This document shows, one piece after another, positions 2,645 to 25,785 of a stretch of DNA of 64,000 nucleotides; the first letter of the stretch is position 1, and every line of letters begins with the position of its first letter. A program made the translations under genes and the position numbers. The notes below the pieces were generated by a model, which worked only from the letters and a program-made list of their open reading frames with translations, had not been told where the DNA came from and made no database searches. Source of the stretch: Chloroflexota bacterium (GTDB taxonomy: Bacteria; Chloroflexota; Dormibacteria; CF-121); NCBI GenBank assembly GCA_005880615.1, contig VBID01000114.1:471-64470 (forward strand), in the 5' to 3' direction.

Positions 2645-2825
2645 AAGCCCGAATCCACCGGATCGAGCTGGCATCGCGGGCGCGGATGCGGCCGATCCGG
2701 GCGTCGTCTCCTGCGGGCGCTCGGTCACGCATCGACGGATGCGCTCCCTCGCGTGCTCGTCGCCTCCTTCGGCTCGGCACGCCCCGCATCCCGATCTGCG
2801 GCGCCCGACCGGTAGATCCGGGCTA
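2645..2825 (+). mobile_element. MITE copy 1 (~177-bp core)
   Basis: Ends AGCCCGAATCCACCGG ... CCGGTAGATCCGGGCT; interior similar to the copies at 9160, 19094 and 25607. Confidence 0.85.
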
Positions 2826-2826
2826 G

Positions 2827-2858
2827 AAAAGGGGGGCGAGCGGTGCCTCTCGCCCCCC
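2827..2858 (-). terminator. Intrinsic terminator-like hairpin
   Basis: 10-bp stem 2831-2840/2849-2858 (GGGGGGCGAG/CTCGCCCCCC), followed by TTTT on the minus strand. Confidence 0.6.
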
Positions 2859-2990
2859 TCTGCCCTGATCCTACGGTCCGGCGGACCGGCGGAAAACGAT
2901 CAGAGGGCCCACCCAGGGCGCCATTCGGGCCCCCTCGGAATTGGTGCCGGGCCTTGGCCGGGACCAACCGGGCTACAATGGCGTTTGCCC

Positions 2991-3074
2991 GCCCGGGTGG
3001 TGGAACTGGTAGACACGCAGCTTTGAGGGGGCTGTGAGCGCAAGCTTGTAAGGGTTCAAATCCCTTCCCGGGCA
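2991..3074 (+). tRNA. tRNA-Leu (anticodon GAG), CCA not encoded
   Basis: Acceptor GCCCGGG/CCCGGGC, D arm TGGTGGAACTGGTAGACAC, anticodon arm CAGCT-TTGAGGG-GGCTG, long variable arm, T arm AAGGG-TTCAAAT-CCCTT; TACAAT 11 nt upstream. Confidence 0.97.
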
Positions 3075-3084
3075 GTTCACCGAT

Positions 3085-3597
3085 TTGAGCATCAGCAGCT
3101 GGTTTCTGCGGCTCCGTTACCCCCGGCACCGGTTCGGGGCCGGCTTTCGCGGGCCCTGGCGGCTCCGGATCAAGGGTCCGGGGACGGTCTCCTTCGGCAC
3201 CAACGTGCGGATCCGCAACCGGGCGGGGCGCACAGCGCTGATCACGCACACGCCAGGCGCGCGGATCGAGGTGGGCGACGGGGTGGAAATCGACGGCGCC
3301 GGCATCATGGCCGCCACTTCGATCGTCATCGGACCGGGGGCCATGCTCGGCTCCTGCCTCCTGGTGGACACCGACTACCATTCCGTGGGGCCATCCCGCC
3401 GGGGACCGGACGCGGCGGTGGTAGTGGGGCCAATCCGGATCGGCGCCGGGGCCTGGATCCAGGACCGGGCCACCATCCTGAAGGGAGTGGCGGTGGGGGA
3501 GGGGGCTATAGTCCGGTTCGCGTCAGTGGTCGCCAGTGACGTGCCCGCGGGCGCGGTGGTGCTGGGGAATCCCGCCCGAGTAGTCGTGCCGCCGTAG
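3085..3597 (+). CDS. Hexapeptide-repeat (left-handed beta-helix) acyltransferase
   Basis: IVIGPGAMLG, DTDYH, IRIGAGAWI, DVPAGAVVLGNPARV. Confidence 0.88.
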   Translation: MSISSWFLRLRYPRHRFGAGFRGPWRLRIKGPGTVSFGTNVRIRNRAGRTALITHTPGARIEVGDGVEIDGAGIMAATSIVIGPGAMLGSCLLVDTDYHSVGPSRRGPDAAVVVGPIRIGAGAWIQDRATILKGVAVGEGAIVRFASVVASDVPAGAVVLGNPARVVVPP

Positions 3598-3610
3598 CCC
3601 GAATCTGGCG

Positions 3611-3793
3611 TTAGTGTTGGGCTGCGGCGGCGATGTTGCTGTACAGGTTCTTGACCGTGTTGCCCAGCACCATGACCACCAGGATCAGGATGACGACCAC
3701 CAGCGACAGGATCAGGGCGTACTCGAGCATGGACTGCCCTTCAAGGTCCTGGCGCCGGAGGTACGCGCGAACCGCCCAAATGAGTCCACCCAA
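3611..3793 (-). CDS. flp: Flp/Fap type IVb pilin
   Basis: EG|QSMLEY prepilin cleavage/Flp motif followed by a hydrophobic helix; AGAGG 7 nt before the TTG. Confidence 0.9.
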   Translation of the reverse strand: MGGLIWAVRAYLRRQDLEGQSMLEYALILSLVVVILILVVMVLGNTVKNLYSNIAAAAQH

Positions 3794-3875
3794 AATAAAG
3801 CCTCTTTATAAACGAGATCGACGTTGGGCCCAGCATGCACGGTAAACGTTGCGCCGGCCTTAAGCGAAACTGGCT

Positions 3876-3891
3876 GTGACCGGATTGTTAC
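3876..3891. promoter_or_regulatory. GTnAC-N6-GTnAC direct-repeat box upstream of the pilin gene
   Basis: GTGAC-CGGATT-GTTAC; matches the GlnR/MtrA-type OmpR-family spacing. Confidence 0.4.
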
Positions 3892-3940
3892 CGGAGCGGT
3901 ACCAGACCGGCAGGCTCTTGCCGTTGCCGCCCCGCGCGAG

Positions 3941-4087
3941 TCAGGCCTGGGCCTGGTGGGAGCGCTGGACCAGGTAGGTAACCACCGTCAGGTATTCGGC
4001 CGAGTCCGCCGACCCCACCCAGCGGGCGTCGTCGGGACCTCGGCCAAATAGGGCGAAGAGATCGTTCAGCGTCAGCTTCTCCTGCAT
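3941..4087 (-). CDS. Unannotated 48-aa protein, paralog A
   Basis: MQEKLTLNDLFALFGRGPDDARWVGSADSAEYLTVVTYLVQRSHQAQA; 29/42 identical to its neighbour; TATGAT upstream. Confidence 0.8.
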   Translation of the reverse strand: MQEKLTLNDLFALFGRGPDDARWVGSADSAEYLTVVTYLVQRSHQAQA

Positions 4088-4147
4088 AATGTGATAGTAG
4101 CGGTATCATAGCACGGCCGTCGCGTTCCGCCCAAACCCCGAATACGG

Positions 4148-4288
4148 TCAGCGGTGGTCGTCGCGCTGGACGAGGTAGAGGACGACCGCCAGGTACTCCT
4201 GGGAGTCGGCCGAGGCGACCCAGCGGGTGTCTTCCGGCTGCCGGCCGAACAGGGAAAAGACCTCGGTCAGCGTCAGGTGCTCGTCCAT
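4148..4288 (-). CDS. Unannotated 46-aa protein, paralog B
   Basis: MDEHLTLTEVFSLFGRQPEDTRWVASADSQEYLAVVLYLVQRDDHR; gap-free alignment with paralog A. Confidence 0.8.
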   Translation of the reverse strand: MDEHLTLTEVFSLFGRQPEDTRWVASADSQEYLAVVLYLVQRDDHR

Positions 4289-4345
4289 AGGCGTCGCGCC
4301 CATGGGGGTGCAACGGCCGCCGCCGCGCGAAGCGCGCGAATTCCA

Positions 4346-4361
4346 GTCACAAGCCGGTAAC
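4346..4361. promoter_or_regulatory. Second GTnAC-N6-GTnAC box
   Basis: GTCAC-AAGCCG-GTAAC in the divergent intergenic region. Confidence 0.4.
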
Positions 4362-4441
4362 GGTTGCCGGTTCACAGGCCCGCTGCTTAGGCGGGCGGTG
4401 GCCCGGGTACACTTTCGAGGCAACTTACGGAGGGTAAATCG

Positions 4442-5161
4442 ATGTTCTTCTTCAGTCCCGGCTACTTGTTGTTCGTCTTCCTTCCCATCCTGGTCCTCAG
4501 CCTGGCGGCCCGGGGATGGGTCCAGTCCACCTACGCGCGCTACTCCAAGGTGCCCAACTCCACCGGGCAGACGGGGGCCCAGGTCGCCCAGCGGATCCTG
4601 ACCGGCAGCGGACTGAGCCATGTCCAGATCAACATCATCGACGGGGATCTGACCGACAACTACGATCCCCGCACCAAGACCCTCAACCTGTCCCGCGGCG
4701 TGGCCACCAGCACGTCAGTCGCGGCCGAGGCGGTGGCGGCCCACGAGATCGGTCACGCGCAGCAGGACGCGCAGGGCTACTTCGCCATGCAGTGGCGATC
4801 AGGCCTGGTGCCGGTGGCCAACCTCGGGTCTCAGGCGGCTCCGCTGATCGTGGTGGCCGGCCTGATCCTCTCCTGGCTGTCGGGTGGTGCCACCTTTGGT
4901 ATCGCGATCGCCGAGCTCGGCCTCGCCCTGTTCGCCATGGTCGTCCTCTTCAACCTGGTGACCACCCCGGTCGAGCTAAACGCCAGCCATCGCGCGCTGG
5001 GCCTGCTGGCCGAGAACGGGGCCATCCTGCCGGAAGAGCAAGCCGGCGCGCGCCAGATGCTGCGGGCGGCCGCTTTCACCTACTGGGTGGCGCTGATCGC
5101 CTCCATCCTGACCCTGCTCTATTACGCCTCGCTGGTCTTTGGCAATCGTCGCAACAACTGA
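4442..5161 (+). CDS. yugP: YugP-family membrane zinc metallopeptidase
   Basis: LTDNYDPRTKTLNLS, AAHEIGHA (HExxH), TPVELNAS; GGAGG SD. Confidence 0.9.
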   Translation: MFFFSPGYLLFVFLPILVLSLAARGWVQSTYARYSKVPNSTGQTGAQVAQRILTGSGLSHVQINIIDGDLTDNYDPRTKTLNLSRGVATSTSVAAEAVAAHEIGHAQQDAQGYFAMQWRSGLVPVANLGSQAAPLIVVAGLILSWLSGGATFGIAIAELGLALFAMVVLFNLVTTPVELNASHRALGLLAENGAILPEEQAGARQMLRAAAFTYWVALIASILTLLYYASLVFGNRRNN

Positions 5162-6230
5162 CCGCGCCCCATTCGCGACCGCCGACCCGGACGCGGTCGC
5201 CCGGTTTTTGACGGCCGGCGGGGAGCCCGCATACCGCGCCGACCAGGCGCGGACCTGGTTCTGGCGGCAGCTGGCGCCCTCCTTCGAGGCCATGCGGACG
5301 CTCTCGCCGGCGGCGCGGGCCCAGCTGGCCGGGGGCTACACCTTTTCCACGGTCGCTGAACACCGCAAGCGGGAGGCTGACCGCGGGGCCACCGTCAAAT
5401 ACTTGTTCCGGCTTCAGGATGGGCGCACCATCGAGACGGTGGTGATGCACTATCCGGCGACCGAGCGCGGACGCGCCCGGACCACGGTCTGCGTCAGTTC
5501 GCAGGTCGGTTGTCCCATTGGCTGCACCTTCTGCGCCACTGGCCAGTCCGGCTTCGACCGCAACCTGACCGAGGCCGAGATCGTCGACCAGTTCCTGGCC
5601 GCCAGCCGGGGACTGAAGGCGCAACAGCGCGCTCTGACCAACGTGGTTTTCATGGGCATGGGCGAGCCCCTGAACAACTACGCAGCCGTGGTGGCGGCCA
5701 TCCGGCGCTGGGCACGGCCGGACACACTGAAATTCAGTCCGCGACGGGTGACGATCTCGACCATCGGACTGGTGCCGTTCATCGAGCGGCTGGCGGCGGA
5801 GAACCTTCCGGTCAATCTGGCCATCTCCCTGCACGCCCCGGACGACGCGTTGCGCTCGTCGATGATCCCGGTCAATCGGAAATACCCGATCGCCGCGGTG
5901 GTCGCGGCGGCCCGGGCGCATGCCGAGCGGACCGGGCGGCGCAACAGTTATGAGTACGTGATGCTGGCCGGGGTCAATGACAGCTCGGAACAGGCCGGCC
6001 GCCTGGCGTCCGTGATCGGGCGCCACCTGACCCACGTCAACCTGATCCCGATGAATCCGGTGGAGGGCAGCCCGCTGCATCGGCCGAGTCGCGACCGCAC
6101 CCTCGCCTTCCAGCGCATTCTGCAGGCAGCCGGAATCTCGACCACCATTCGCGATACGCGGGGACTGGACATCGACGCCGCCTGCGGCCAGCTCCGGGCA
6201 CGAGAGCTGGCTCCCACGCCCGCAGGATAG
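5139..6230 (+). CDS. rlmN: 23S rRNA A2503 C2-methyltransferase (radical SAM)
   Basis: CVSSQVGCPIGCTFC, FMGMGEP, DIDAACGQL; start uncertain. Confidence 0.95.
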   Translation: MAIVATTDRAPFATADPDAVARFLTAGGEPAYRADQARTWFWRQLAPSFEAMRTLSPAARAQLAGGYTFSTVAEHRKREADRGATVKYLFRLQDGRTIETVVMHYPATERGRARTTVCVSSQVGCPIGCTFCATGQSGFDRNLTEAEIVDQFLAASRGLKAQQRALTNVVFMGMGEPLNNYAAVVAAIRRWARPDTLKFSPRRVTISTIGLVPFIERLAAENLPVNLAISLHAPDDALRSSMIPVNRKYPIAAVVAAARAHAERTGRRNSYEYVMLAGVNDSSEQAGRLASVIGRHLTHVNLIPMNPVEGSPLHRPSRDRTLAFQRILQAAGISTTIRDTRGLDIDAACGQLRARELAPTPAG

Positions 6231-6298
6231 ACGCGCCTGCAGGGCTTGTACCCTGCATGGATAGTCGTCCCGTGATGCAGACCTATACTCAGGGGGTA

Positions 6299-7144
6299 TT
6301 GAGGAAAACCCTATTCCTCTCGCTTGGGGTGGCGATGACCCTCGCCGCCTGCGGCGCCTCAGCGCCGGCCGAAACGCCGCAGCAGGTGCTGGCCGCCGCC
6401 GCCCAAAAGCTGGGCGGACTGCACACCGTCAAATTCGACGTGCATGGGACCATCCTGACCAGGATCCCACCCGAAGTCATGGCGGCGCTGACGAACAACC
6501 AGGCGCAGCAGGGTTCTTCGGTGGCGGCCCTGGCCAACACCAGCGTCGACCTGAAGGGCACCGGTGAGGCCGTCTATCCGGACCAGATGCACGTCAGCGT
6601 CCAGGTGACCACCAGCGGGCTGGCCTTCGCTACTGAGCAGGTGGTCGCGGGCGGCAAGGTGTACACCAAGAATCCGCTCACCGGGCAATGGCTGGCCGGC
6701 GACCCCAGCCAGCTCGGCATGCAGCTCAACCAGCTCGGACCATTGACAGCCAAGCAGATCCTGGAGGCGTCGGGGTCGGTCCAGGATCTGGGCGACGTCA
6801 GCCCCAACAACGTGGCCACCCATCACTACCGGATCACGCCCGACAAGACCAAGCTGACCAGCACGCTGGAAGCCAATCCGGCCTTCACCGACCCGCAGGC
6901 CCGCAAGGCGCTCGAACAGGCGCTCACTGCCGGGACGCTCACCTTCGAGGTCTGGATTAGTAAGGATGATCACCTGCTGCGATCCATGCGGTCCGATGCC
7001 GACGTGCTGATCCCGGCGGCCCAGCTGGTCTCGGGCACTACGCAGCTCCCGGCCGGTGCCGCCATCCACATCACCGCCCACCTCGACCTGGCCTTTCACG
7101 ACTTCAATGCGCCGGTGACGATTACCATCCCCAAAACGTCTTGA
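6299..7144 (+). CDS. Lipoprotein, LppX/LprAFG-like
   Basis: Signal MRKTLFLSLGVAMTLAA-C (lipobox); TATACT 9 nt before the TTG; beta-rich body ending FHDFNAPVTITIP. Confidence 0.75.
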   Translation: MRKTLFLSLGVAMTLAACGASAPAETPQQVLAAAAQKLGGLHTVKFDVHGTILTRIPPEVMAALTNNQAQQGSSVAALANTSVDLKGTGEAVYPDQMHVSVQVTTSGLAFATEQVVAGGKVYTKNPLTGQWLAGDPSQLGMQLNQLGPLTAKQILEASGSVQDLGDVSPNNVATHHYRITPDKTKLTSTLEANPAFTDPQARKALEQALTAGTLTFEVWISKDDHLLRSMRSDADVLIPAAQLVSGTTQLPAGAAIHITAHLDLAFHDFNAPVTITIPKTS

Positions 7145-7788
7145 TCGTTTCGCCATCGCTCCTGTCGGCCGACTTCAGTCGGCTGGGGGAGGAGGTCGCC
7201 GCGCTGGAAGCGGCCGGCGCCGACTGGATCCACTTCGACGTGATGGACGGCCACTTCGTGCCCCCCATCACCATCGGTCCGATGGTGATCAAGCAGTGCC
7301 GGCGCTATGCCAGGATCCCCTTCGATGTGCACCTGATGATCGAGGCGCCGGAGCGGACCCTCGGAGACTACGCCGACGCCGGGGCGACGACGCTCTCGGT
7401 CCACGTCGAGTCGACCCGCCACATCCACCGGACGCTAGAGCTGATCCGCACGGCCGGCATGCGTCCGGGCGTGTGCCTCAATCCCGGGAGCCCGTTGGAC
7501 CTGGTGGCGCCGGTCCTCCCGTTGGCCGACCTGCTGGTGGTGATGGGCGTCAACCCGGGGTGGGGCGGCCAACCGTTCATCGACTCCACGCCCGAGCGGG
7601 TCCGGGCCGCCCGCCAACTGGCGGACCGCCTGCATCCCACGCTGGACATCGAGGTCGACGGCGGCGTCAACCTGGAGACCGGGCGGAAAGTTTCGACCGC
7701 GGGCGCCACGGTGCTGGTGGCGGGGCACTTCACCTTCAGCCACCCGAACGGCGCCAAGGCCGCCATCGCCCAGTTACACGGCCTTTAG
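7141..7788 (+). CDS. rpe: Ribulose-phosphate 3-epimerase
   Basis: SPSLLSADF, HFDVMDGHFVP, DVHLM, VDGG. Confidence 0.96.
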   Translation: MIVSPSLLSADFSRLGEEVAALEAAGADWIHFDVMDGHFVPPITIGPMVIKQCRRYARIPFDVHLMIEAPERTLGDYADAGATTLSVHVESTRHIHRTLELIRTAGMRPGVCLNPGSPLDLVAPVLPLADLLVVMGVNPGWGGQPFIDSTPERVRAARQLADRLHPTLDIEVDGGVNLETGRKVSTAGATVLVAGHFTFSHPNGAKAAIAQLHGL

Positions 7789-7793
7789 GAAGG

Positions 7794-8495
7794 CTATTCC
7801 GCGGTCGGCATATGCAGGTACATGCTCTGGATGCCCACCTTGCCGGGGCCGGTGAACCGGTTCCAGATCAGCTGGCCGGAGCCGCCAAACATGCCGGTGC
7901 GCAGCCCGAACATCTGGACCTCCATCTTTACGTTCGCGTCCCGGTAGATCCAGCCACCCGGCTCCACATCGATCTGCTCGCCCTGGGCAAGCACCTTCTC
8001 GAAGACGTTCCCATAGCCATGCAGCCAGACCACGCCTTCCTGGTTTTGCGCCCGGAAGTGGTCCACGAAGAAACCGGTGGAGGCGAACAGCATGTTGGTG
8101 ACGCCCTTCTGGCGCGTGAACCCGTACTCCAGGTTGGCGGTGGCGGCCAGGAACTGGTGCTCCCGGACTTCGACCGCCTGGCCCGGCGCCAGATGGATGG
8201 GGAAGATCTGACCGGCGCCGTCACGGGAGAAGGCGATCTCGCCTGGCCCCTGGGCCTCGGTCAGAAAGACCGGCATCCCGGCGATCATGCGCTTGAACGC
8301 GCCTTTCAGCGTCTTCATGCCGATGTTCAGCTGGGGGTCTTTCCAGAGCACGACGTGGTGCTCGAAGAACACCGGGACCTGCCCGCCTAGCGTGACGTGA
8401 AGGATAGGCACCATCTCCCCCTCGATCCGGTAGCCGATCCCGGGGGCCTGGCCGTCCTCGACCCGGGTGGGGAGGAGGCGGGGCGGCTGTGGCAT
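7794..8495 (-). CDS. AIM24-family protein
   Basis: YRIEGEMVPILHV, LHGYGNVFEKVL, IDVEPG, RFTGPGKVGIQSM; ATG at 8495. Confidence 0.85.
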   Translation of the reverse strand: MPQPPRLLPTRVEDGQAPGIGYRIEGEMVPILHVTLGGQVPVFFEHHVVLWKDPQLNIGMKTLKGAFKRMIAGMPVFLTEAQGPGEIAFSRDGAGQIFPIHLAPGQAVEVREHQFLAATANLEYGFTRQKGVTNMLFASTGFFVDHFRAQNQEGVVWLHGYGNVFEKVLAQGEQIDVEPGGWIYRDANVKMEVQMFGLRTGMFGGSGQLIWNRFTGPGKVGIQSMYLHMPTAE

Positions 8496-8574
8496 GGTCA
8501 GAACGCGTAACTCGGGCGGTTCGCCATCCTTGCGGCGGCCGCAGTGAACGGGGTGGGCCCGCGTTTCAGGGGAT

Positions 8575-9162
8575 ATGGCTGCGCCGGCCGCCCAGTTCTT
8601 TCGGTCGCAGCCCAGCCGGGGAGGGCAGCTCCGCCTCTGGAGCGTCGGCCTGACCCTGGCGGCCTCGGTCGGGCTGGCGGTGGCCGCCGCCCATCTGCCG
8701 CCAGTCATTTCCTCGGGGGCGAACCTTCGCGACCCCGACCAGGTGATCTACGCCCGCAACATCTGGCAAGAGAGCCAGACCAGCCTGGTGGTGCTCGCCC
8801 TGTTCATCCCGTGGCTGGGCTACGGCCTGCTGTTGCGGGGCGCGCCCTGGGGCCGGCTAGCGGTGCTGGTGCTAGCAGGGGCCGGGGCGGCGCTCGGCCT
8901 GTGGATGACCGCGCATAGCCTCGGTCTGTATGCGGCGAAGCCAGAGTACGTGGCAGGGGTCGTCACCCGGGTTGACGGCCGGCAGATTACGCTGGCGGCG
9001 CGTCCGCCCCGGACCTTCTACCTGGTCGTCTCAGAGGCCGAACTGCGCGCGGCGCAGATCTGGGACCGGCCGGGCAACGCCGTGGGAATGTGGGTGGCGC
9101 CCAACGGCCAGGCGGGCTTCATCGGACGGCCCAGTGGTGGCAAGCCCATCCTCCAGAGCTAA
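8575..9162 (+). CDS. Hypothetical multi-TM membrane protein
   Basis: 195 aa, three hydrophobic segments and a beta-rich C-terminus; its stop codon is the MITE end. Confidence 0.7.
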   Translation: MAAPAAQFFRSQPSRGGQLRLWSVGLTLAASVGLAVAAAHLPPVISSGANLRDPDQVIYARNIWQESQTSLVVLALFIPWLGYGLLLRGAPWGRLAVLVLAGAGAALGLWMTAHSLGLYAAKPEYVAGVVTRVDGRQITLAARPPRTFYLVVSEAELRAAQIWDRPGNAVGMWVAPNGQAGFIGRPSGGKPILQS

Positions 9163-9343
9163 GCCCGGAACCACCGAAGTCGGGCTTGCATCTCGGGCGC
9201 GGATGTGGCCGATCCGGGCGTCGTCTCCTGCGCGCGCTCGGTCACGCATCGACGGATGCGCTCTCTCGCGTGCTCGTCGCCTCCTTCGGCTCGGCACACC
9301 CCGCATCCCGATCTGCGTCGCCCGATCGGTGGTTCCGGGCTTA
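9160..9343 (+). mobile_element. MITE copy 2 (perfect terminal inverted repeat, TA on both sides)
   Basis: TAAGCCCGGAACCACCGA ... TCGGTGGTTCCGGGCTTA. Confidence 0.9.
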
Positions 9344-9352
9344 GGCCCTGGG

Positions 9353-9538
9353 TCAGGCTTTGCGGGCCGCGGTCCGCAGGCAACGGGTGCAGACCATGGC
9401 CTTCCGGGTTTGCCCACCGATGGTGACCGTGGCCGGGTGCAGGTTGGGCAGGAACCGGCGCTTCGTGTGCACCTTGGAGTGGCTCACGTGGTGGCCGTAC
9501 TGAGGCCCTTTTCCGCAAATTTCGCAGCGTTGTGCCAT
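9353..9538 (-). CDS. rpmB: 50S ribosomal protein L28
   Basis: [30 protein letters not shown]. Confidence 0.97.
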
Positions 9539-9608
9539 TGTCTTACTCAGAGGCCTCCGTGCCCGCCCGCGCTATGATGGAGGCGAAATCAGCGGCTCAT
9601 TCTAGCAG

Positions 9609-10016
9609 ATGGAATCCAGAACCAAGCCCAGCTCGACGCCGAGAGCGAAGGCCGCCAGGACGCTGATCCAGTCCCAGGACCTGGGCCGCATCCAGGTCTC
9701 GCCCCGCGTCGTCGCCACCATCGCGGCGCATGCCGCGGCGGACTGCTACGGCATCGTGGGCATGGCCGCCCAGGGACTGCGGGAAGGCCTGGCCCAGCGG
9801 CTGCACCGCGACAGTGTGCACCGCGGCGTCGACGTGGAACTCCGTGAGGATGGGGTGGCCATCTCGCTCTACGTGATCGTGGAGTATGGGATCCGGGTGT
9901 CCGAGGTCTCCCAGAATCTGACCAACGCTGTTCGCTACTCGATCGAGCGGACACTCGGCCTGCCCGTGGTCGAGGTCAACATCCACGTCCAGGGCGTCCA
10001 CGTCACCGGGGTGTAG
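9609..10016 (+). CDS. yloU: Asp23/Gls24 family protein
   Basis: GRIQVSPRVVATIA, YVIVEYG, VNIHVQGV; rpmB-yloU-yloV synteny. Confidence 0.9.
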   Translation: MESRTKPSSTPRAKAARTLIQSQDLGRIQVSPRVVATIAAHAAADCYGIVGMAAQGLREGLAQRLHRDSVHRGVDVELREDGVAISLYVIVEYGIRVSEVSQNLTNAVRYSIERTLGLPVVEVNIHVQGVHVTGV

Positions 10017-10097
10017 CCCGTCTCCAGCACGCCTCGTCCGACGCTGCCCATCCTCGCGTGTGACGGCCATCTCTTCAAAGAGGCCCTGCAGGGTGCG

Positions 10098-11651: not shown

Positions 11652-11672
11652 GGAAGCCCGGACCTACCGGGC

Positions 11673-11987
11673 TTAAACCAGCAGCTGATACAGGTTGGCG
11701 GCCACACCCACGGCGGTCAAGCAGGCCCCGATGCGGAAGGCCTGCCAGACGCGCGGTCGCCGGTACTGGAGCATCATCAGGACTCCCAGGAGCACCGCGA
11801 TGGCGACGCCCTTCACCGCGTAGGCTGCCAGCTCGCCCTGCGACCCCACAATGGGCGCCATGATGCTGTTGAGCTCCGGGTGGCTGAGTCGGAGGCCGAT
11901 GTGGGTGGTGATGATATCCAGCGCCTGAAATGCCAGGAAGGCGACCACGATCACCGCCTGGGTTCGAATGGACGGGGCCTTCACCAT
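11673..11987 (-). CDS. Small membrane protein, DUF5658-like
   Basis: LDIITTHIGL..ELNSIMA; TAACGT 11 nt before the ATG. Confidence 0.7.
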   Translation of the reverse strand: MVKAPSIRTQAVIVVAFLAFQALDIITTHIGLRLSHPELNSIMAPIVGSQGELAAYAVKGVAIAVLLGVLMMLQYRRPRVWQAFRIGACLTAVGVAANLYQLLV

Positions 11988-15181: not shown

Positions 15182-15205
15182 ACGGATCCAGTTTACTGTG
15201 GAGCG

Positions 15206-16730: not shown

Positions 16731-16735
16731 GCCTC

Positions 16736-17968: not shown

Positions 17969-17978
17969 GCTGTTCAGC

Positions 17979-18137
17979 TCAGACCGCGCCAGCAAGCCCG
18001 CTCTGCTGTCGAACGCGACTCAGATCCTGCCACGCCACCGTGCCGTACGCCGGCATGACGAGCAGGGCCAGGAAGATGACCACCCCGGTGAGCGTGAGGT
18101 AGTTACGGGCCGTCCTGTCAGGGTTCGCGTACGTCAC
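17979..18137 (-). pseudogene. Membrane-protein fragment (52 aa), probably a remnant
   Basis: (KLDIDGQIE)VTYANPDRTARNYLTLTGVVIFLALLVMPAYG; in-frame TAG 8 codons upstream of the GTG. Confidence 0.3.
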
Positions 18138-18248
18138 CTCTATCTGACCGTCGATATCCAGCTTCGTGATCTAGCCGCCCCAGAGCAGCGACGTCACGGC
18201 CCTTCAGCGCGAAGCGTACGGCGGGATTTCCCTGCGCTGGCGCTACCG

Positions 18249-19226
18249 TTACCATTGCACGTCGCGGTCGACATAGCCTTGCTGGCGTCCGCGGCGATCG
18301 GCCCATCGAAAGACCAGAGACGCAACCACGACCGTCCCGATGGTGCTGGCCACCAGCCGGATCAGGACGTCGACGTCCGACAGCCCCGGGAACATCTGAT
18401 AGGCCTGGGCCTGCAGGAGCGAACGCCGCACCAACTCCATCCAGTAGGCGAGCGGCGACAGGGCCGCGATCGTCGCCAGCGGGCCCGGCAGGATCCCAAT
18501 CGGAAAGATGGCACCAGAGATGACGTAGAGGACACCGGCCCCGATCTCTCCATAGCCGTGTGTATCGCGTCCGGCCAGCAGCAGGAAGGTAAAGGCCATC
18601 CCGATGGCCACGATGGCGGCGAACGCGAGCAAACAGGCCACCCCGAGCAGCAGCCAGTTTGCGCGCAGCGGGTTGATCGGCAAATGCAGAGTGATGGTCC
18701 CCAGTCCGATCACGATGACCGCCGAGGCGGCTGCCCCCGCTAGCTGGGCAATGGCCCGGCCCACCAGGTACACGCCGAACGGCAGCGGTGCGATGTAGAT
18801 GTACTTGAGCATCCGGTACTGGCCGCGGTCGTCCAGGATGGCGTTGGCGAACCCCGACAGCCCCTGCTGCACGAATGACCAGAAGGCGGTGCCGGTGATC
18901 AAGAAGGCCAGGTAGGTGGACGCCCGACCACGGGTGATCACCTGGTAGATGACCGTCAGGATCAGGGCGGCCGAAATGGGCCGCAGGACGGAGTAGACAA
19001 GGAACACGCCGGGTGATGTCCAGTTGCTCGACACCTGCCAGCCCAGGCGAGCCGAGGCACCCAGACCACGCCAGGTCTGAATGCCGGCCGTTGTTAGCCC
19101 GAATCCACCGAATCGAACTTGCATATTGGGCGCGGGGCGAGCGAGCGGGGCGTCGTCTTCTGCGCGCGTTCGGTTACGCACCAACGGGTGCGCGCCCTCG
19201 CGTGCTCGTCGTCTCCTTCCGCTCAT
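18249..19226 (-). CDS. ABC-2 type permease; native start separated by a MITE
   Basis: Six-TM ABC-2 pattern (SGAIFPIGILP, SPLAYWMELVR); in-frame ATGs at 19238, 19226 and 19124 lie inside the MITE. Confidence 0.85.
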   Translation of the reverse strand: MSGRRRRAREGAHPLVRNRTRAEDDAPLARPAPNMQVRFGGFGLTTAGIQTWRGLGASARLGWQVSSNWTSPGVFLVYSVLRPISAALILTVIYQVITRGRASTYLAFLITGTAFWSFVQQGLSGFANAILDDRGQYRMLKYIYIAPLPFGVYLVGRAIAQLAGAAASAVIVIGLGTITLHLPINPLRANWLLLGVACLLAFAAIVAIGMAFTFLLLAGRDTHGYGEIGAGVLYVISGAIFPIGILPGPLATIAALSPLAYWMELVRRSLLQAQAYQMFPGLSDVDVLIRLVASTIGTVVVASLVFRWADRRGRQQGYVDRDVQW

Positions 19227-19275
19227 CTCGCCGCGCATCCCAATCTGCGTCGTCCGATCGGTGGATCCGGGCTTA
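19094..19275 (+). mobile_element. MITE copy 3 (most diverged), flanked by TTA/TTA
   Basis: TTAGCCCGAATCCACCGAATCG ... CGATCGGTGGATCCGGGCTTA; 179-bp net insertion. Confidence 0.88.
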
Positions 19276-20091
19276 AACCCATCGCATGCTCAGCCGAGCG
19301 TCCCGCCGCGCCAGCCGTTCCATCATTCGCAGCGCCCACTGCGCGCTCAGGAGATAGGCCGGAATCTGGAGGGCAATCAAGCCAGCTTCCCAGGCCGGCG
19401 CGAGGAAAACCGGGGTGCCCGGAAGGAGGACCTGGCGGATCGCGTCCAGCCCCAGCGTCAGCGGGATGATGGAGGCTGCCCCGGCCACGTAGGCGCCCAG
19501 CGAGTGGACCGGAAAATAGAAGCCGCTCAGAAAATACACCGGCTCCTGCATGCCGTCGAGGGCATGCCAGGCGGAACGGCCGAAAAAGAGGAAGAGGCTG
19601 GCCAGCAGCATACCCAGGGCATAGAGGGCCAGGAGGGTCAGCGCCAGGAGGCCCACGGCCGGCGCGATTCCCGCGGGGCGGTAGTGGACCTGGAAGAGCA
19701 GCGAGGTCACCAGCAGCACGGCCGCCGCCCGCTGCGCCGTGTAGAAGATGCCGCCCAGGGCCATCCCGAGCAGGATGGCGGTGAACGTGGTCGGCGCCAC
19801 GGTGAACAGCTCGAGGTTCGATCCGCCGCGCTCCCAGATGAAGTTGCCGGCCATGTCAAACACGATGTTTTGCCAGAACGCCAGCAGCGTGCCGCCCAGG
19901 ACAACGAACCCGGTGTACTCGGCCGGCGCTCGCAGGGCTCGATAGACGTACACCATAGCGACCGTCCCGATCAGGGGCAGCACGATCTCAATCACGACCC
20001 AGCTCCAGTTCCGGGCGTGCCCGACGGTTCGCGGATAGGCGCGCGCGATCACGGTCTTGACGAAGATCCGGAGTGCCGAGGGACGGCTCAC
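19273..20091 (-). CDS. ABC-2 type permease
   Basis: GTLLAFWQ, GSNLELFTVAP, YFLSGFYFP, IPLTLGLDAIRQ. Confidence 0.88.
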   Translation of the reverse strand: MSRPSALRIFVKTVIARAYPRTVGHARNWSWVVIEIVLPLIGTVAMVYVYRALRAPAEYTGFVVLGGTLLAFWQNIVFDMAGNFIWERGGSNLELFTVAPTTFTAILLGMALGGIFYTAQRAAAVLLVTSLLFQVHYRPAGIAPAVGLLALTLLALYALGMLLASLFLFFGRSAWHALDGMQEPVYFLSGFYFPVHSLGAYVAGAASIIPLTLGLDAIRQVLLPGTPVFLAPAWEAGLIALQIPAYLLSAQWALRMMERLARRDARLSMRWV

Positions 20092-21101
20092 GGCGCTTCC
20101 TCCTCGGCCATGCCGCGCCCCACCAACTTGACGAAGGCGTCCTCCAGGCTCGGGTCGCGTTTCTGCAAGCCCAGCACCTCCCGACCGGAGCCGGCGACGA
20201 TGCCCAGCACCGACGTGAGCACGCCGTCGTCTGCCAGCAACAGGCTGAAGCGGTCCGCCCCGTCCTGCTGGGTGACCGTCGCCGCCGTGACGCCGTCCAC
20301 TCGCCGCAGCTCGGTCAGCAGGTCGCGGCCAAGGGTCAGCTGCAGGTCGACGATGACGTCCTGCTGGACCTGCTGCTTGAGGCTGGGGGGCGTTCCCTGC
20401 GCCACGATCCGGCCGTGGTTGACGATGGCGAGGCGGTCACACAGCTCGTCCGCCTCGTTCATGTAGTGGGTGGTCAGGATGACGGTGCGGGTCGGATCCT
20501 CCTGGACCCAGCGCCGCACTTCCCGGCGCACGTCCCGGGCCGCCCCCACGTCGAGCGCCACGGTCGGCTCGTCCAGGAACAGGATTCGCGGATCCGTCAC
20601 CAGGCCCCGGATGAGGTTCATCTTCTGCCGCATCCCGCTGGACAGGGCGCTGACGTAGCGGTCGGCCGCCTCGGTCAACCCTAGCCGCTCCATCAGCTCA
20701 TCGATCCGGGCCCGCGCGACCCGGCTGGAGAGGCCGTAGAACTGGCTGAACATCCAGATGTGTTCGCGGGTCTTCATCAGGCCGTAGCCGGAGTTCTCGC
20801 CGCCAGATACCATCGCAATCCGATGCCGCAGCTCCTGGAAATCGCGCGCCACATCGAGGTCGTCCACGAACGCCTGGCCGGAAGTTGGGAGGAGGAGCGT
20901 CACCAGGATCTTGATCAGCGTGGTCTTGCCAGCGCCGTTGGGGCCGAGCACGCCGAAAATCTCCCCGCGCGCGACCGAGAGGTCGATCCCGTCCAGGGCT
21001 ACGACGGACTCCCGACGCGACTGGTAGACGCGCCGGAGCGCGATGGTCTGAACCGCTGCCGATTGAATGAGGTCAGGCATCGAGATCGCCGATGCTACCA
21101 T
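20088..21101 (-). CDS. ABC transporter ATP-binding protein
   Basis: GPNGAGKT, LSSGMRQK, FLDEPT, TTHYM. Confidence 0.95.
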   Translation of the reverse strand: MVASAISMPDLIQSAAVQTIALRRVYQSRRESVVALDGIDLSVARGEIFGVLGPNGAGKTTLIKILVTLLLPTSGQAFVDDLDVARDFQELRHRIAMVSGGENSGYGLMKTREHIWMFSQFYGLSSRVARARIDELMERLGLTEAADRYVSALSSGMRQKMNLIRGLVTDPRILFLDEPTVALDVGAARDVRREVRRWVQEDPTRTVILTTHYMNEADELCDRLAIVNHGRIVAQGTPPSLKQQVQQDVIVDLQLTLGRDLLTELRRVDGVTAATVTQQDGADRFSLLLADDGVLTSVLGIVAGSGREVLGLQKRDPSLEDAFVKLVGRGMAEEEAP

Positions 21102-21117
21102 GGCCTAGACCTTCTTT

Positions 21118-23688
21118 ATGGATACACGGAACAATCTCACCCGCGACGAGGCGCGCACCCGAGCGGGACTCTTTACCGACATTCACTACGAGGTCAGCCT
21201 CGACCTGACTCGTGGGGACGAGACCTTCGGCGTCGACACCACGATCCGGTTTCGATGCGCTTCCGCCGGCGTGACCAGCTTCGTGGACTGCCTAGCCGCC
21301 TCCGTCGATCGGATCGAGGTCAACGGCCGGCCACAGCCAGCCAGCACATTCGACGGAGCTCGGATCGCGCTTTTGGACCTGGCGGAGAGCAACGTGGTCA
21401 GGGTGGTGGGCAGCGGGGCCTACCAGCACACCGGTGCCGGCCTGTCCCAGTTCAAAGACCCGGTGGACGGCCGGGTTTACCTGCACACCCAGTTCGAGCC
21501 GTTCGATGCCCACCGCCTCTTCCCCTGCTTCGACCAGCCCGACCTGAAGGGCACCTTTCGATTCGGCGTGAAGGCCCCGGCGGGCTGGGAGGTCGTTTCC
21601 AACAGCCCGGCGGACCCGCCCGGGGGCGCCGCCACGGATGGCGCCGCCGGCGCCCGCCTCTGGACATTCCAGACCACGCCCCGGCTCTCCAGCTACGTGA
21701 CGGCCATCGTCGCCGGACCCTTTCACGTGGTGCGGGAGCGCCACGGCCAGATCGACCTGGGGCTCTACTGCCGCCAGTCGCTGGCCCAGTACCTCGATGC
21801 GGCGGAGATTTTCGAGATCACCCGCCAGGGCTTCGACTTCTATCAGCGGGTGTTCGATTACCCGTACGCCTTCGGCAAGTACGACCAGCTCTTCGTGCCG
21901 GAGTTCAGCGCCGGGGCCATGGAGAATGCCGGCTGTGTGACGTTTGCGGAGGGGATGATCTACCGCTCCAAGGTGACGGAATCCGCTCGCGAGTGGCGCG
22001 CCAGCACCATCCTGCACGAGATGGCGCACATGTGGTTCGGCGACCTGGTGACCATGCGCTGGTGGGACGACCTCTGGTTGAACGAGAGCTTCGCGACGTT
22101 CATGGCCGTGCTGGCCCTCACCCGGGCCACCCGCTTCACCAATGCCTGGACAACCTTCGCCAATGAAGAGAAGGGGTCGGCCCGCCGGCAGGATCAGCTG
22201 CCGACCACCCATCCGATCGCGGCCAATGTGGTCGACGTAGAATCCACGCACCTCAACTTTGACGCGATTACCTATGAGAAGGGCGCCTCGGTGCTACGCC
22301 AGCTCTTCGCCTGGGTGGGCGAGGACGCCTTCTTCCAGGGGCTGCGCCGATACTTCCGTCAGCACGAATTCGCCAACGCCGATTTGCAGGAATTCCTGGC
22401 CGCCGTCGGCGCCGGCAGCGGCCGCGACCTGCATGCCTGGTCGAAGGAATGGCTCGAGACCGCCGGGCTCAACACGCTGCGCCCGCTCCTGGAGCACGAT
22501 GGGAACCGGCTGGTCGAACTGACCGTCGAGCAGGAGGCCGAGCTGGGGTGGCCGACGCTGCGATCCCAGCGCATCGGGGTCGGACTCTTCGACCTGGATG
22601 AGGAGCGGCTGACGCGGCGCCGCCGGGTGGAGTTCGACGTGACCGGCGCGTCGAGCGATGTCCCGGCCGTCGCCGGCGAGCTGGTCCCGGATCTGCTCTT
22701 GCTGAACGACGGGGATCTGGGCTACGCCAAGATCCGCCTGGACGACCAATCGATGGACACGGTGACCCGCCACCTGGCATCCCTCGACGACTCGCTGGCG
22801 CGGGCGCTGTGCTGGAGCGCCGCCTGGGACATGGTGCGGGACGCCCGGCTGGCTGCCCGGCAATATCTGCCCCTGGTGGCCAACAACGTTCACGGCGAGA
22901 CCGACATCGGCGTGGTCCAGGCGCTCCTGGCGCAATGCGAGTCGGCCACGGACATCTACGGCGACCCGGCCAACGTGCCGCAGGCTCGCGAGCTGATCGT
23001 GCGGCTGGCCGAGCGCTCGCTGGAGAAGGCGGAGCCGGGGAGTGACCTGCAGCTGGTCTGGGCCCGTACGCTGATCTCGGCCTCGCGCACCCCCGCCCAG
23101 CACGCGCTGGTGCGCGGCATCCTGGATGGCTCGATCCCGTACGAGGGGCTGCAGGTCGACATCGATCTCCGCTGGCACATCGTGCGCTCGCTCGCCAGCG
23201 AAGGCGTGATTGGACCTGCCGAAATCAAAGCGGAGCTGGAGCGCGATCCCACCGACGCCGGCCGTCGCCATGCCGCGGGCGCCCTGGCCGCCAGACCGAC
23301 CGCCGAGGCCAAGGCCGAGGCCTGGCGGTTGATCGTCGAGGATCCGACCCAACCGCTGGCCACCCTGCGGGCCATCATGCGCGGCTTTCAGCAGCCCACC
23401 CAGCGGCCCCTGCTGGAGCCATACGCCGACCGATACTTCGAGACCCTGGGGCCGTTCTGGAAGAGCCGGATTATCGAGGTGGCCCTCGCCTTTGCCCGCG
23501 GGATGTATCCGTCGCTCGTTATCGGGGAGCGCGTGGTCAGTCAGACGGAAACCTACCTGCGAACCCAAGCCCCGCCTGGTCCCGTGCAGCGGATTCTGCT
23601 GGAGGGCCAGGACCAGATGCGCCGGGCCATCCGGGCCCGGCGCGTGGACGCGGGAGCCCCCGCCACCCCCGTCGAACTCCGGATATAA
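21118..23688 (+). CDS. pepN: Aminopeptidase N (M1 family)
   Basis: GAMEN, HEMAH-x18-E, ITYEKG. Confidence 0.95.
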   Translation: MDTRNNLTRDEARTRAGLFTDIHYEVSLDLTRGDETFGVDTTIRFRCASAGVTSFVDCLAASVDRIEVNGRPQPASTFDGARIALLDLAESNVVRVVGSGAYQHTGAGLSQFKDPVDGRVYLHTQFEPFDAHRLFPCFDQPDLKGTFRFGVKAPAGWEVVSNSPADPPGGAATDGAAGARLWTFQTTPRLSSYVTAIVAGPFHVVRERHGQIDLGLYCRQSLAQYLDAAEIFEITRQGFDFYQRVFDYPYAFGKYDQLFVPEFSAGAMENAGCVTFAEGMIYRSKVTESAREWRASTILHEMAHMWFGDLVTMRWWDDLWLNESFATFMAVLALTRATRFTNAWTTFANEEKGSARRQDQLPTTHPIAANVVDVESTHLNFDAITYEKGASVLRQLFAWVGEDAFFQGLRRYFRQHEFANADLQEFLAAVGAGSGRDLHAWSKEWLETAGLNTLRPLLEHDGNRLVELTVEQEAELGWPTLRSQRIGVGLFDLDEERLTRRRRVEFDVTGASSDVPAVAGELVPDLLLLNDGDLGYAKIRLDDQSMDTVTRHLASLDDSLARALCWSAAWDMVRDARLAARQYLPLVANNVHGETDIGVVQALLAQCESATDIYGDPANVPQARELIVRLAERSLEKAEPGSDLQLVWARTLISASRTPAQHALVRGILDGSIPYEGLQVDIDLRWHIVRSLASEGVIGPAEIKAELERDPTDAGRRHAAGALAARPTAEAKAEAWRLIVEDPTQPLATLRAIMRGFQQPTQRPLLEPYADRYFETLGPFWKSRIIEVALAFARGMYPSLVIGERVVSQTETYLRTQAPPGPVQRILLEGQDQMRRAIRARRVDAGAPATPVELRI

Positions 23689-23700
23689 TTCGTCGAGCTT

Positions 23701-23877
23701 ATGGCCCTTCCCAAGACCCGCTATTCCCGTGCCCGTCAGGGTGAGCGACGCGCCCACCTGGCAATCAAGCTGCCCCGCCTGGTGGAGTGTTCGCAGTGCC
23801 ACCAGCTGCGCCGGCCGCATACCATCTGCCAGAACTGCGGCTACTACGACGGCCGCGAGGTCATCAAGACCGAATAG
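23701..23877 (+). CDS. rpmF: 50S ribosomal protein L32 (58 aa, absent from the ORF track)
   Basis: MALPKTRYSRARQGERRAH, CSQC, HTICQNCGYYDGR. Confidence 0.96.
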   Translation: MALPKTRYSRARQGERRAHLAIKLPRLVECSQCHQLRRPHTICQNCGYYDGREVIKTE

Positions 23878-23934
23878 TCCCCAAGCGCCATTCCCAGCGG
23901 TGCCGGTAAGAAGTCTTCACAATAGCCGCGGGAT

Positions 23935-24864
23935 ATGACGATGGATGGCACCGCCTTTCTGTTCCCGGGTCAAGGCGCGCAATTCGTCGGCATGGCGCGC
24001 GACCTGATCGGGCAGGATGAGCGGACCAGGCGCTTCCTGAGCGCGGCCGAGGGCCGGCTCCAGATGCCGCTCGGCGAGCTGATGCTGCAGGGGCCAGAGG
24101 CGGCGCTGCAGGCCACCGAGAACGCCCAGCCCGCCATCGTCTTCCACAGCCTGGCGCTGCTCGGCCACCTCGACGATCGCGGTCTGGCCCCGGCGGCCGT
24201 CGCCGGACACAGCCTGGGAGAGCTGGCTGGCCTGGTGGCGGCGGGCGGTCTCAGCCCGCTCGATGCGCTGGCGGCAGCCCAGGTGCGCGGGCGCACCATG
24301 GCAGCGGCGGCGTCGGCCCAAACCGGGATGGCCGCCGTCCTCGGCCTGGACGATGGGACCGTGGAGCGGCTCTGTGCCGAGAGTGGGGGAGCGGTGGTCG
24401 CAGCCAACTACAACGCCCCCGGGCAGGTGGTCATCTCGGGCACCGACGCCGGGATCCGTGCCATCGAGCCCCTCCTGCTGGCGGCGGGAGCCAGGCGGGT
24501 CGTCCGCCTGCCGGTCAGTGCGGCATTCCACTCCCCCCTGATGGCCTCCGCGGCGGAAGCCTTCGGCCAGGCGTGGCAGCAGATCCCGCTGGAGCCGCTG
24601 GCGGTGCCGCAGGTGTTCAATACCGACGCGCGGGTCCATGCCAGTCCAGCCGAGGTTCGCCCCCTGTTGGCCCGCCAGCTGACCGGGCCGGTCCGCTGGA
24701 CGGCCAGCATCGAACGGCTGGCGGCGCTGGGCGTCCGCACCTTCGTGGAGATCGGCCCCAAGCGCACCCTCACCGGCCTGGTGCAAAAGATTCTGCCCAA
24801 GGCCGCCGTCGCCAACGTCGAAGATCTGCCCAGCCTGCGGGCGTTCGTGACGGCGCATGCCTGA
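23935..24864 (+). CDS. fabD: Malonyl-CoA:ACP transacylase
   Basis: FPGQGAQ, GHSLGE, SAAFHS. Confidence 0.95.
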   Translation: MTMDGTAFLFPGQGAQFVGMARDLIGQDERTRRFLSAAEGRLQMPLGELMLQGPEAALQATENAQPAIVFHSLALLGHLDDRGLAPAAVAGHSLGELAGLVAAGGLSPLDALAAAQVRGRTMAAAASAQTGMAAVLGLDDGTVERLCAESGGAVVAANYNAPGQVVISGTDAGIRAIEPLLLAAGARRVVRLPVSAAFHSPLMASAAEAFGQAWQQIPLEPLAVPQVFNTDARVHASPAEVRPLLARQLTGPVRWTASIERLAALGVRTFVEIGPKRTLTGLVQKILPKAAVANVEDLPSLRAFVTAHA

Positions 24865-25609
24865 CCGCGCGCTACAGGGACAGGTCGCCCTGGTCACCGG
24901 AGGCAGTCGCGGGATCGGGCGGGCGGTGGCGCTGGGCCTCGCCCAGGCCGGGGCCAACGTCGCTATCAGCTATCGGGTGAAGCAGGCGGAGGCCGAGGCG
25001 GTGGTGGAGGAGCTGCGGCAACACGGGGTTGAGTCGGTGGCGCTGCAGGCCGACCTGGCCGAGGTGGCGGCGCCGGCCACGCTGATCGGCGCCGTCCTGG
25101 CCCGCTGGGGCCGGCTGGATGTGTTGGTCAACAACGCCGGCATCACCCGGGACACGCTGGTGATGCGGATGAGCGAGGCCGATTGGGACCTGGTCATCCA
25201 CACCAACCTGCGGGGGCCGTTCCTGGTCAGTAAGGCGGCCCTGCGGCCGATGCTGAAGCAGCGCTACGGGCGGATCGTAAACATGTCCTCGCTGGCTGGG
25301 GTCGCCGGCAATGCCGGGCAGGCCAACTACAGTGCGGCCAAGGCCGGCCTGATTGGCTTTACCAAGTCGCTGGCCAAAGAGGTCGGCTCCCGCAACATCA
25401 CGGTGAATGCGGTCGCCCCCGGGTTCATCGAGACCGACCTGACCCGCGACCTCCCGGCGGAGTTGCTGGACCGCGCCCGCGCGGCGGCGGCCATCCCCCG
25501 CCTGGGGACACCAGATGAGGTCGCTGCCGCGGTGGTCTTCCTGGCGTCCCCGGCGGCGGCCTACGTCACCGGGCAGGTGCTGGGCGTGGACGGGGGGCTA
25601 CCAATCTAA
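24857..25609 (+). CDS. fabG: 3-oxoacyl-ACP reductase
   Basis: TGGSRGIG, NNAGITRD, YSAAK. Confidence 0.95.
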   Translation: MPDRALQGQVALVTGGSRGIGRAVALGLAQAGANVAISYRVKQAEAEAVVEELRQHGVESVALQADLAEVAAPATLIGAVLARWGRLDVLVNNAGITRDTLVMRMSEADWDLVIHTNLRGPFLVSKAALRPMLKQRYGRIVNMSSLAGVAGNAGQANYSAAKAGLIGFTKSLAKEVGSRNITVNAVAPGFIETDLTRDLPAELLDRARAAAAIPRLGTPDEVAAAVVFLASPAAAYVTGQVLGVDGGLPI

Positions 25610-25785
25610 GCCCGAATCCACCGAATCGAACTCGCATTGTGGGCGCGGAGCGGCCGATCCGGGCGTTGGCTCCTGCGCGGTCGGTCACGCATCGACGGAT
25701 GCGCTCCCTCCCGTCCCCGTCGCCGCCTTCGGCTCGGCACGCCCCGCATCCCAATCGGCGTCGTTCGACCGATAGATCCAGGCTT
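25607..25785 (+). mobile_element. MITE copy 4
   Basis: Begins at the fabG stop, TAAGCCCGAATCCACCGAATCG, and ends GATAGATCCAGGCTT. Confidence 0.85.

Follow-up and report, generated by a model that had tools for sequence, protein, structure and literature searches.

Hairpin-forming miniature inverted-repeat elements beside stop codons in an uncultured Dormibacterota genus

A family of non-coding repeats of about 180 bp occurs in four full copies within a 64,000-nucleotide stretch of a Dormibacterota draft genome, and roughly half of the stand-alone full copies in that genome overlap a stop codon. The stretch, here called the window, is C51:471-64470 (contig VBID01000114.1) of genome G000 (GCA_005880615.1), a draft of 3.59 Mb in 241 contigs with 66.7% GC. 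We favor, with a probability of about 0.7, the reading that these repeats are MITEs (transposable elements of miniature size with inverted repeats) moved in trans by a transposase of the IS630/Tc1-mariner type into TA-containing targets, with stop codons rebuilt at the junction. On this model the repeats would be non-autonomous DNA transposons of an uncultured soil genus. Acting in trans, a DDE transposase (IS630/Tc1-mariner being the most likely type) would cut at the inverted-repeat ends and paste the element into TA-containing C-T(W)A-G sites, duplicating 2-3 bp. Such sites are rare at 67% GC, and outside coding sequence about one third of them are a TAA or TAG stop. The duplicated TA, together with the first base of the element (A or G), would restore an in-frame TAA or TAG whichever strand carries the gene, so that insertions at stops would be harmless and would persist.

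Anatomy, spread and mobility of the family

A profile made from the four window copies was run against the whole draft genome and returned 115 matches (15.4 kb), 59 of them full length, a family far beyond chance. The copies are non-coding, dispersed and 177-183 bp long. When the 59 full copies were aligned with their flanks, the constant part, GCCCG...CGGGC (the core), measured 175-178 bp, with terminal inverted repeats of about 22 bp (AGCCCGRATCCACCGAA... pairing with ...TCGGTGGATCCGGGCT) and flanks whose consensus is C-T-N-A to the left of the core and T-N-A-G to its right. Three sub-families can be told apart by arms that change together: CCACCGA/TCGGTGG, CTACCGG/CCGGTAG and GGCCGCCGG/CCGRCGGCC. 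The four copies in the window share a mean column identity of 86% (nhmmer E-values 1e-53 to 1e-55). An initial annotation of the window had placed four full copies there in one orientation, and all four lie on the + strand where it put them. It had also described terminal repeats (AGCCCGRAWCYACCG) and internal self-complementarity (GGATGCGG/CCGCATCC and CGCATC-GACG-GATGCG), and both are found in the copies. What that first reading missed is that the entire element is one long hairpin on either strand, and that it is the centre, not the ends, that is conserved. Copy 2, for example, folds as a single hairpin with a free energy of -113.7 kcal/mol on the + strand (z -7.9) and -115.9 kcal/mol on the - strand (z -9.4).

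Derivatives of the element are also present. Some are internally deleted remnants, such as TAA-GCCCGAATCTACCGGGC-TAAG, and similar short remnants occupy several of the 'empty' sites in related genomes. Remnants of 20-125 bp that are still flanked by TAA or TTA were seen at C134:5045, C172:10453, C20:2844, C30:12552 and C71:20522-20646; the last of these has lost exactly its centre, between two GTCG-N-CTCC direct repeats. Elements have in addition inserted into other elements at two fixed points, near positions 52 and 125, which are the edges of the conserved centre. Nested or tandem arrays at C232:417-1210 and C223:5367-5990 begin with three left halves, continue with one complete copy and end with four or five right halves at a 128-bp period; their join points coincide with both edges of the conserved centre and contain no TA.

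To follow the sites between species, the joined flanks of 12 sites in G000 were searched in G001 and G002, which represent two further species of the genus and differ by 5-10% in the flanks, and 40 copies of the relatives were traced back to G000. At least 40 copies are present in G001 and at least 28 in G002, and over 15 sites hold an element in one species but lack it in another. The clearest pair, at C50, changes from GGC-TTA-GCT to TTA-core-TTA; at locus L049, CTAG becomes CTAA-core-TAGG. Empty sites, which the initial annotation had proposed to look for in relatives, are thus plentiful, and its identification of the repeats as MITEs is borne out by their short length, lack of coding capacity, terminal inverted repeats, dispersal and filled and empty sites among the three species. 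Since nearest-neighbor copies range from merely 85% to as much as 99% identity, the family has been active for a long time and also recently; the earlier description of it as old or long-active therefore holds, with recent activity to be added.

Two further copies bear on movement. The copy at C16:3618-3794 (locus L030) and its counterpart on G002 C145 are the same copy (174/182 identical, 95.6%) in opposite orientation between identical flanks, which represents either an inversion in situ or a second hit on one site. A copy in a genome of another family, f3 (G126:C117:131-609, locus L074), carries AGCCCGAATCCACCGG arms as in this genus together with a centre that is 97% identical, a resemblance suggesting horizontal transfer of the element between families.

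Stop codons, target site and candidate transposase

Genes were called in G000 with a purpose-built simple codon-usage caller, which yielded 3358 genes (85% coding) with stops distributed as TGA 1529, TAG 1028 and TAA 637 (TAA/TAG/TGA usage 20/32/48%). Among the 44 stand-alone full copies, 21 (48%) overlap a called stop codon at a junction. In about 13 the stop consists of the three bases beside the core, and in about 8 it is a TAG made of TA and the first G of the core. The junction stops (TAA 13, TAG 7, TGA 2) reverse the usage of the genome. For non-coding sites, the expected overlap with a stop is 12% for TA, 16% for TWA, 28% for CTWAG and 33% for CTAG, and the observed 48% departs from these with p=6e-9, 9e-7, 0.004 and 0.03, respectively. 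Because the CTWAG and CTAG expectations already reach 28-33%, most of the accumulation at stops is due to target preference and not to stops as such; the remaining excess is probably the result of purifying selection against insertions elsewhere. An association with stop codons, as the initial annotation had proposed from the window alone, is thus seen genome-wide. Across the class to which the genus belongs, 33 of 55 elements carrying the same centre adjoin a stop, mostly a TAG formed from TA and the first G of the element.

The proposal that insertion rebuilds the stop is likewise supported. At the sites that have a comparable empty site, namely copies 2 and 4 of the window, C51:70211 and C51:76751, the end of the protein is the same with and without the element, and the junctions are rich in TAA and TAG and poor in TGA. 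At C43:520 the stop has been lost and the frame extends 25 nt into the element. Elements lie equally often in either orientation relative to the gene (6 vs 6), and the mix of tandem, convergent and divergent gaps that they occupy equals that of the genome, with no bias for an intergenic type and no enrichment of convergent gaps. A function as a terminator or at 3' ends, considered from this distribution, was rejected given the lack of bias in orientation and intergenic type.

Transposases were sought with the Pfam families PF13358, PF13586, PF01797 and PF01609 (DDE_Tnp_1). The initial annotation had reported no transposase in the window; the genome-wide matches to these four families are all on other contigs, although no scan aimed at the window itself was made. 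Two IS630-type loci were found in G000, on C148 and C228 (PF13358, 78-80 bits), and one further match in G001. The first, C148:2829-3988, is an apparently intact element of the IS630 family with a 375-aa open frame and a DDE_3 match. Its ends read C-TA-GTGTCCTGA...TCAGGACAC-TA-G (at greater length, TA-GTGTCCTGAGTT...AATTCAGGACAC-TA), a TA duplication in a CTAG-like site. The second, at about C228:2059-3190, has ends that read TA-CTGATCTACG (also given as TA-CTGATCTACGTATAAG), and its two frames meet at an A7G slippery run (CATATAAAAAAAGG), which probably represents a programmed frameshift. The G001 element ends in CTAAGTGGTCCTCGCTGGAAG, and further IS630 copies in the taxonomic family end in TAGTGTCCCGAAACCGAAGTTCGT.

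These ends connect IS630-type elements to hairpins related to the MITEs. The ends of the G000 elements read TA-GTGTCC..., and most of the related hairpins in the class have arms that match them. Such class-wide hairpins, whose limits were set by local alignment of their arms, carry the same centre, measure 180-240 bp and have arms that mostly begin with TAGTGTCC, TAAGTGG or CAGTGTCC, which are IS630 ends. Against shuffled sequences, the similarity of the arms of these sister families (TAGTGTCC...) to IS630 ends has p<=0.002-0.007. Since IS630 elements with TA duplications are present and their ends match the sister arms, an IS630-type enzyme is the most likely motor, and we infer that such an enzyme moves this particular AGCCCG family as well.

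Several observations weigh against this reading. The AGCCCG arms of the genus itself resemble IS630 ends weakly and in their inner part only (CCCGAA..ACCGAA..TCG, p=0.013), the terminal bases being different. No autonomous element with AGCCCGRATCC ends was found in the draft genome or in the fetched loci, an absence that counts as weak evidence because the assemblies are fragmented metagenome-assembled genomes. An ordinary DDE transposase reads conserved ends, but here it is the centre that is conserved and the ends that differ from lineage to lineage. Nor is the TA duplication clean: of 44 copies, only 11 have the same triplet on the left and the right (TTA in eight, TAA in three), the excess of filled over empty sites, not counting the core, is 2-5 bases, a few insertion sites have no TA (copy 1, L054 and L069), and the points of self-insertion, GGCC^GATCC and CTCC^TTCC, contain no TA. 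A clean TTA duplication, of the kind anticipated by the initial annotation, is seen at the C50 site. The link to IS630 that it proposed is supported indirectly: CTAG/TA-like flanks, IS630 elements in the genome and matching sister arms speak for it, whereas an insertion sequence with matching termini, which it had suggested seeking, turned up for the sister families and not for the AGCCCG ends. A separate search for an autonomous partner, by a scan for the end motif and by self-BLAST for repeats the size of an insertion sequence, yielded nothing but remnants with internal deletions and contigs duplicated between strains. The MITE was also compared with the IS630 copies themselves, as a possible antisense regulator for example, and no similarity beyond chance emerged.

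The duplication is T(W)A-like and 2-3 bp long, and could be either TA with one variable base or TWA. Half of the copies (22/44) fit TA plus 0-2 extra terminal bases, and the youngest mostly read NTA-core-TTA or NTA-core-TAG. Its length is blurred because the genomes compared differ by species and several 'empty' sites hold remnants. A 3-bp TWA duplication within CTWAG would instead point to a Tourist-like MITE moved by a transposase of the IS5/PIF-Harbinger type. We regard this as unlikely, despite several features that fit it: TTA/TTA and TAA/TAA are the two commonest identical triplet pairs, the C50 change is a clean one of TTA to TTA-core-TTA, tandem junctions within arrays read CGGGC-TNA-GCCCG, and the core at C16:3618 is inverted in G002 with its right TTA in place, which suggests that the triplet belongs to the flank. 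DDE_Tnp_1 elements are also present in the genome. However, identical pairs are confined to those 11 copies, the youngest copies fit TA and an optional base better than TWA, and the sister families carry IS630-like ends and TA flanks. PF13586, the IS427/IS1031 group, is absent from the genus, and the three DDE_Tnp_1 (PF01609) loci, when considered as partners, were rejected: their ends are unrelated, and the match near C71 is the MITE copy that lacks its centre.

The conserved centre

The centre of the element, about 70-79 nt, is 85-97% identical in 125 of the 301 genomes of the class (33 of 69 genera, four families), while the arms around it are unrelated. In these class-wide searches at most three candidates per genome were scored, and copy numbers from them are lower bounds. 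A second class-level lineage of the phylum, f35, has a centre that is 77-83% identical, and no other sampled lineage has it. There the hairpins are 117-132 bp long, number tens per genome, have copy-specific arms without TA ends and, in either orientation, sit 4-35 nt past stop codons. Orthologous sequences of one f35 locus show the centre retained between diverged arms in five genomes and no hairpin in four.

The centre bears signs of a maintained structure. It contains two direct repeats, GTCG-N-CTCC, whose N and N' can pair with each other in 49 of the 61 sequences (G-C 19, A-T 16, C-G 14) and which are flanked by conserved pyrimidine-pyrimidine mismatches. In copy 2 the arrangement is GTCG-N-CTCC TGCGCGCGCTCGGTCACGCATC-loop-GATGCGCTC.CTCGCGTGCTCGTCG-N'-CTCC. 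The apical stem covaries between GCATC/GATGC and GCACC/GGTGC, with a loop of variable length. Mismatches in the arms are strand-biased, with A.C exceeding G.T on the + strand by 211:44 in G000, 120:70 class-wide and 15:2 in f35; counted per element across the class, 31 show the bias and 9 the reverse (p=0.0007). Because of this bias, the complementary strand would fold better, as RNA or as single-stranded DNA. On that strand the repeats read (A)AGGAG-N-CGAC and look like Shine-Dalgarno sequences (for example on the - strand of window 9215-9287). The + strand of the centre reads CCTCCTT, resembling the 3' end of 16S rRNA. Both likenesses may be a coincidence of a GC-rich hairpin.

We infer that the centre is either cis-acting for the element or an older structured module carried by MITEs. 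It may, in the latter case, be a functional module that rides on them. Taken further, this gives an alternative in which the mobile or selected unit is the structured centre of about 70 nt, acting as complementary-strand RNA or single-stranded DNA in an ancient hairpin that marks gene ends in this branch of the phylum, whose closing stem can vary freely and gained transposon ends in the Dormibacteria; the MITE would be merely a vehicle, and its spread might partly reflect the function of the module. We hold this possible and no more than tentatively so. The conservation of the centre in the class despite unrelated arms argues for it, as do the f35 hairpins, which follow stops with the same centre but without TA ends, the f35 locus at which the centre outlasted the arms, the covariation of N/N' and of the apical stem, and the strand-biased mismatches. 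Against it, the hairpins favor neither orientation with respect to the gene upstream (6 vs 6 here, 26 vs 15 class-wide, about 6 vs 4 in f35), and convergent gaps are not enriched. In seven orthologous comparisons within the genus, a small number, the centre does not evolve more slowly than the arms (28/524 vs 25/717 substitutions). Rfam covariance models gave no match on the copies at the gathering score or at E<=10, save one chance match to a long non-coding RNA, and the copy at C71:20522-20646 persists without a centre.

Should the module nevertheless be the real functional entity, which we would put forward only as a conjecture, it would comprise GTCG-N-CTCC...CACGCATC-loop-GATGCG...GTCG-N'-CTCC, an undescribed complementary-strand RNA or single-stranded DNA module that is older than the Dormibacteria, has a closing stem free in sequence and was repeatedly fitted with IS630-type ends there and spread as a MITE. 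It would then exemplify a structured, conserved element that transposons carry. The complementary GGAG-N-CGAC repeats would then flank a short helix with tandem G.A mismatches, as predicted from the sequence.

The same structural features raise the question of REP/REPIN-like hairpins moved in single-stranded form by an HUH enzyme (Y1, RAYT or IS200-type) that reads the hairpin and not the ends. The structure of the whole element, its freely covarying stems, its conserved apex and the strand-biased mismatches would all suit such an enzyme. Nonetheless, we consider this highly improbable: PF01797 (Y1_Tnp; Y1/RAYT) gave no match in G000, G001 or G002, nor in 28 of the 30 relatives searched, and the Y1-rich relative G026 has no copy of the centre. 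Moreover, IS200/IS605 elements and REPINs lack the true terminal inverted repeats and the short duplications of the flank that are seen here. Movement by an IS630-type enzyme acting in trans remains the reading that we prefer.

Copies in the window, related repeats and significance

The positions of the four window copies, of the centre of copy 2 and of the genes whose stops adjoin copies are collected in the table. The initial annotation had stated that three copies begin or end at the TAA of a gene, which is so for copies 2, 3 and 4 and not for copy 1. The three genes that touch copies are real or plausible.

Table. Positions of MITE copies and adjoining genes in the window (position 1 is the first nucleotide of the window).
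Feature	Position	Strand	Remarks
MITE copy 1	2645-2826	+	core GCCCG...CGGGC 2647-2823; flanks CAA (left) and TAG (right)
MITE copy 2	9161-9343	+	core 9163-9340; left flank TAA (9160-9162), right flank TTA
Conserved centre of copy 2	9215-9287	+	limits approximate; equivalent stretch in each copy
MITE copy 3	19095-19275	+	core 19097-19272; right flank TTA (19273-19275)
MITE copy 4	25608-25786	+	core 25610-25783; left flank TAA (25607-25609), right flank TTG; most decayed copy
Gene adjoining copy 2 by its TAA	8575-9162	+	195 aa, no Pfam match
ABC-2 type transporter permease gene, stop adjoins copy 3	19273-20091	-	Pfam
Short-chain dehydrogenase (FabG-like) gene, TAA adjoins copy 4	24857-25609	+	Pfam

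Copy 1, in contact with no stop codon, has the start of a response-regulator gene (1617-2453, - strand) on one side and a tRNA (2991-3074) on the other. Its site is empty in G001 and G002 (CCC-AG-AAAAGG), both of which have a copy about 140 bp further right, adjoining the tRNA. Just to the right of copy 1, at 2840-2860, is a perfect G/C-rich hairpin (GGGGGGCGAG-CGGTGCC-TCTCGCCCCCC) that is kept in both relatives. Copy 2, whose left-flank TAA is the stop of the + strand gene beside it, is absent from both relatives, where the empty sites read AGC-TAA-GCC (G001) and AGC-TAG-GCC (G002). The prediction that removing this copy would leave a TAG is accordingly correct for G002, but in G001 the stop is TAA.

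At copy 3 the right-flank TTA, read on the - strand, is the TAA stop of the ABC-2 permease gene, and a second ABC-2 gene (18249-19007, - strand) begins 88 bp past the left end of the copy. All three genomes of the genus carry an element here, and these copies differ at 1-2 of 176 nt vs 6-8% divergence of the flanks; the copy is either constrained or homogenized through gene conversion. Its orthologs are L027 and L028, and the flanking ABC-2 permease genes are 6-8% different among the three species. The left-flank TAA of copy 4 is the stop of the FabG-like gene; the site is filled in G001, and in G002, which is without the element, the gene ends in ...CCA CTC TAG at the same codon position. Elsewhere in the window, a coding region contains, at 59911-60126, a tandem repeat made up of about 18 units of 12 bp (GGCCAGCCCCAC and variants).

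Repeats of the RUP (repeat unit of pneumococcus), Correia and ERIC/BOX kinds have already been described (PMC2229807, PMC3049150, PMC10969869), and a literature search surfaced no paper on such repeats in Dormibacterota. The initial annotation had compared the window copies with the TA-targeting ERIC, RUP and Correia elements, a likeness that structure, TA-like flanks and mobility support. For RUP, IS630-Spn1 has been proposed as the source of mobility (Oggioni and Claverys 1999, reviewed in PMC2229807, PMC3049150). Like RUP, the present element is small and non-coding, has terminal inverted repeats, about 100 copies and TA insertion, and shares its genome with an IS630-type insertion sequence to which the link is inferred from ends and target. 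It differs in that the ends of RUP match those of its insertion sequence directly, whereas here only the sister families do so and the AGCCCG ends are without a partner, and in being a GC-rich hairpin over its full length with a centre conserved across classes.

Correia elements contain an internal IHF site, and in-situ inversion of them has been reported (PMC2229807, PMC10969869). The Correia/NEMIS elements of Neisseria resemble the present family in their TA target, in forming a hairpin as RNA or DNA and in self-insertion or clustering. The inversion in situ has a counterpart here in the one copy inverted between species at a single site, and the internal functional motif has one in the conserved centre, a candidate functional element. 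Correia elements, however, lie mostly upstream of genes and carry promoters, whereas the present family has no bias for an intergenic type. With ERIC/BOX it shares the character of intergenic palindromic repeats at the 3' ends of genes that are able to supply a stop; the difference is that here the stop is rebuilt at the junction, from TA and the first base of the element, and that this happens at roughly every second copy, whichever strand carries the gene.

Among the MITEs of eukaryotes, Stowaway elements belong to Tc1/mariner with a TA target and Tourist elements to PIF/Harbinger with a TWA target, the bacterial relatives being IS630 and IS5. Their two target types are the two candidates considered here, and in both settings non-autonomous copies far outnumber the autonomous partner. 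In Stowaway and Tourist, though, the ends are conserved and the interior is variable, which is the reverse of the situation here. Together, these comparisons support placing the present family with the RUP, Correia and ERIC kind as a previously undescribed member.

Copies of the family make up about 0.4% of the genome, and they may be the cause of many contig breaks in these assemblies and of many problems in annotating the ends of genes. The repeats account for the TAA stops that are over-represented beside them, and the family shows how target preference and stop rebuilding together make gene ends safe landing sites. If the centre is indeed a module that functions as RNA or DNA, or else enhances transposition in cis, this would be new, and it would offer a way to study how internal functions are retained or gained by MITEs.

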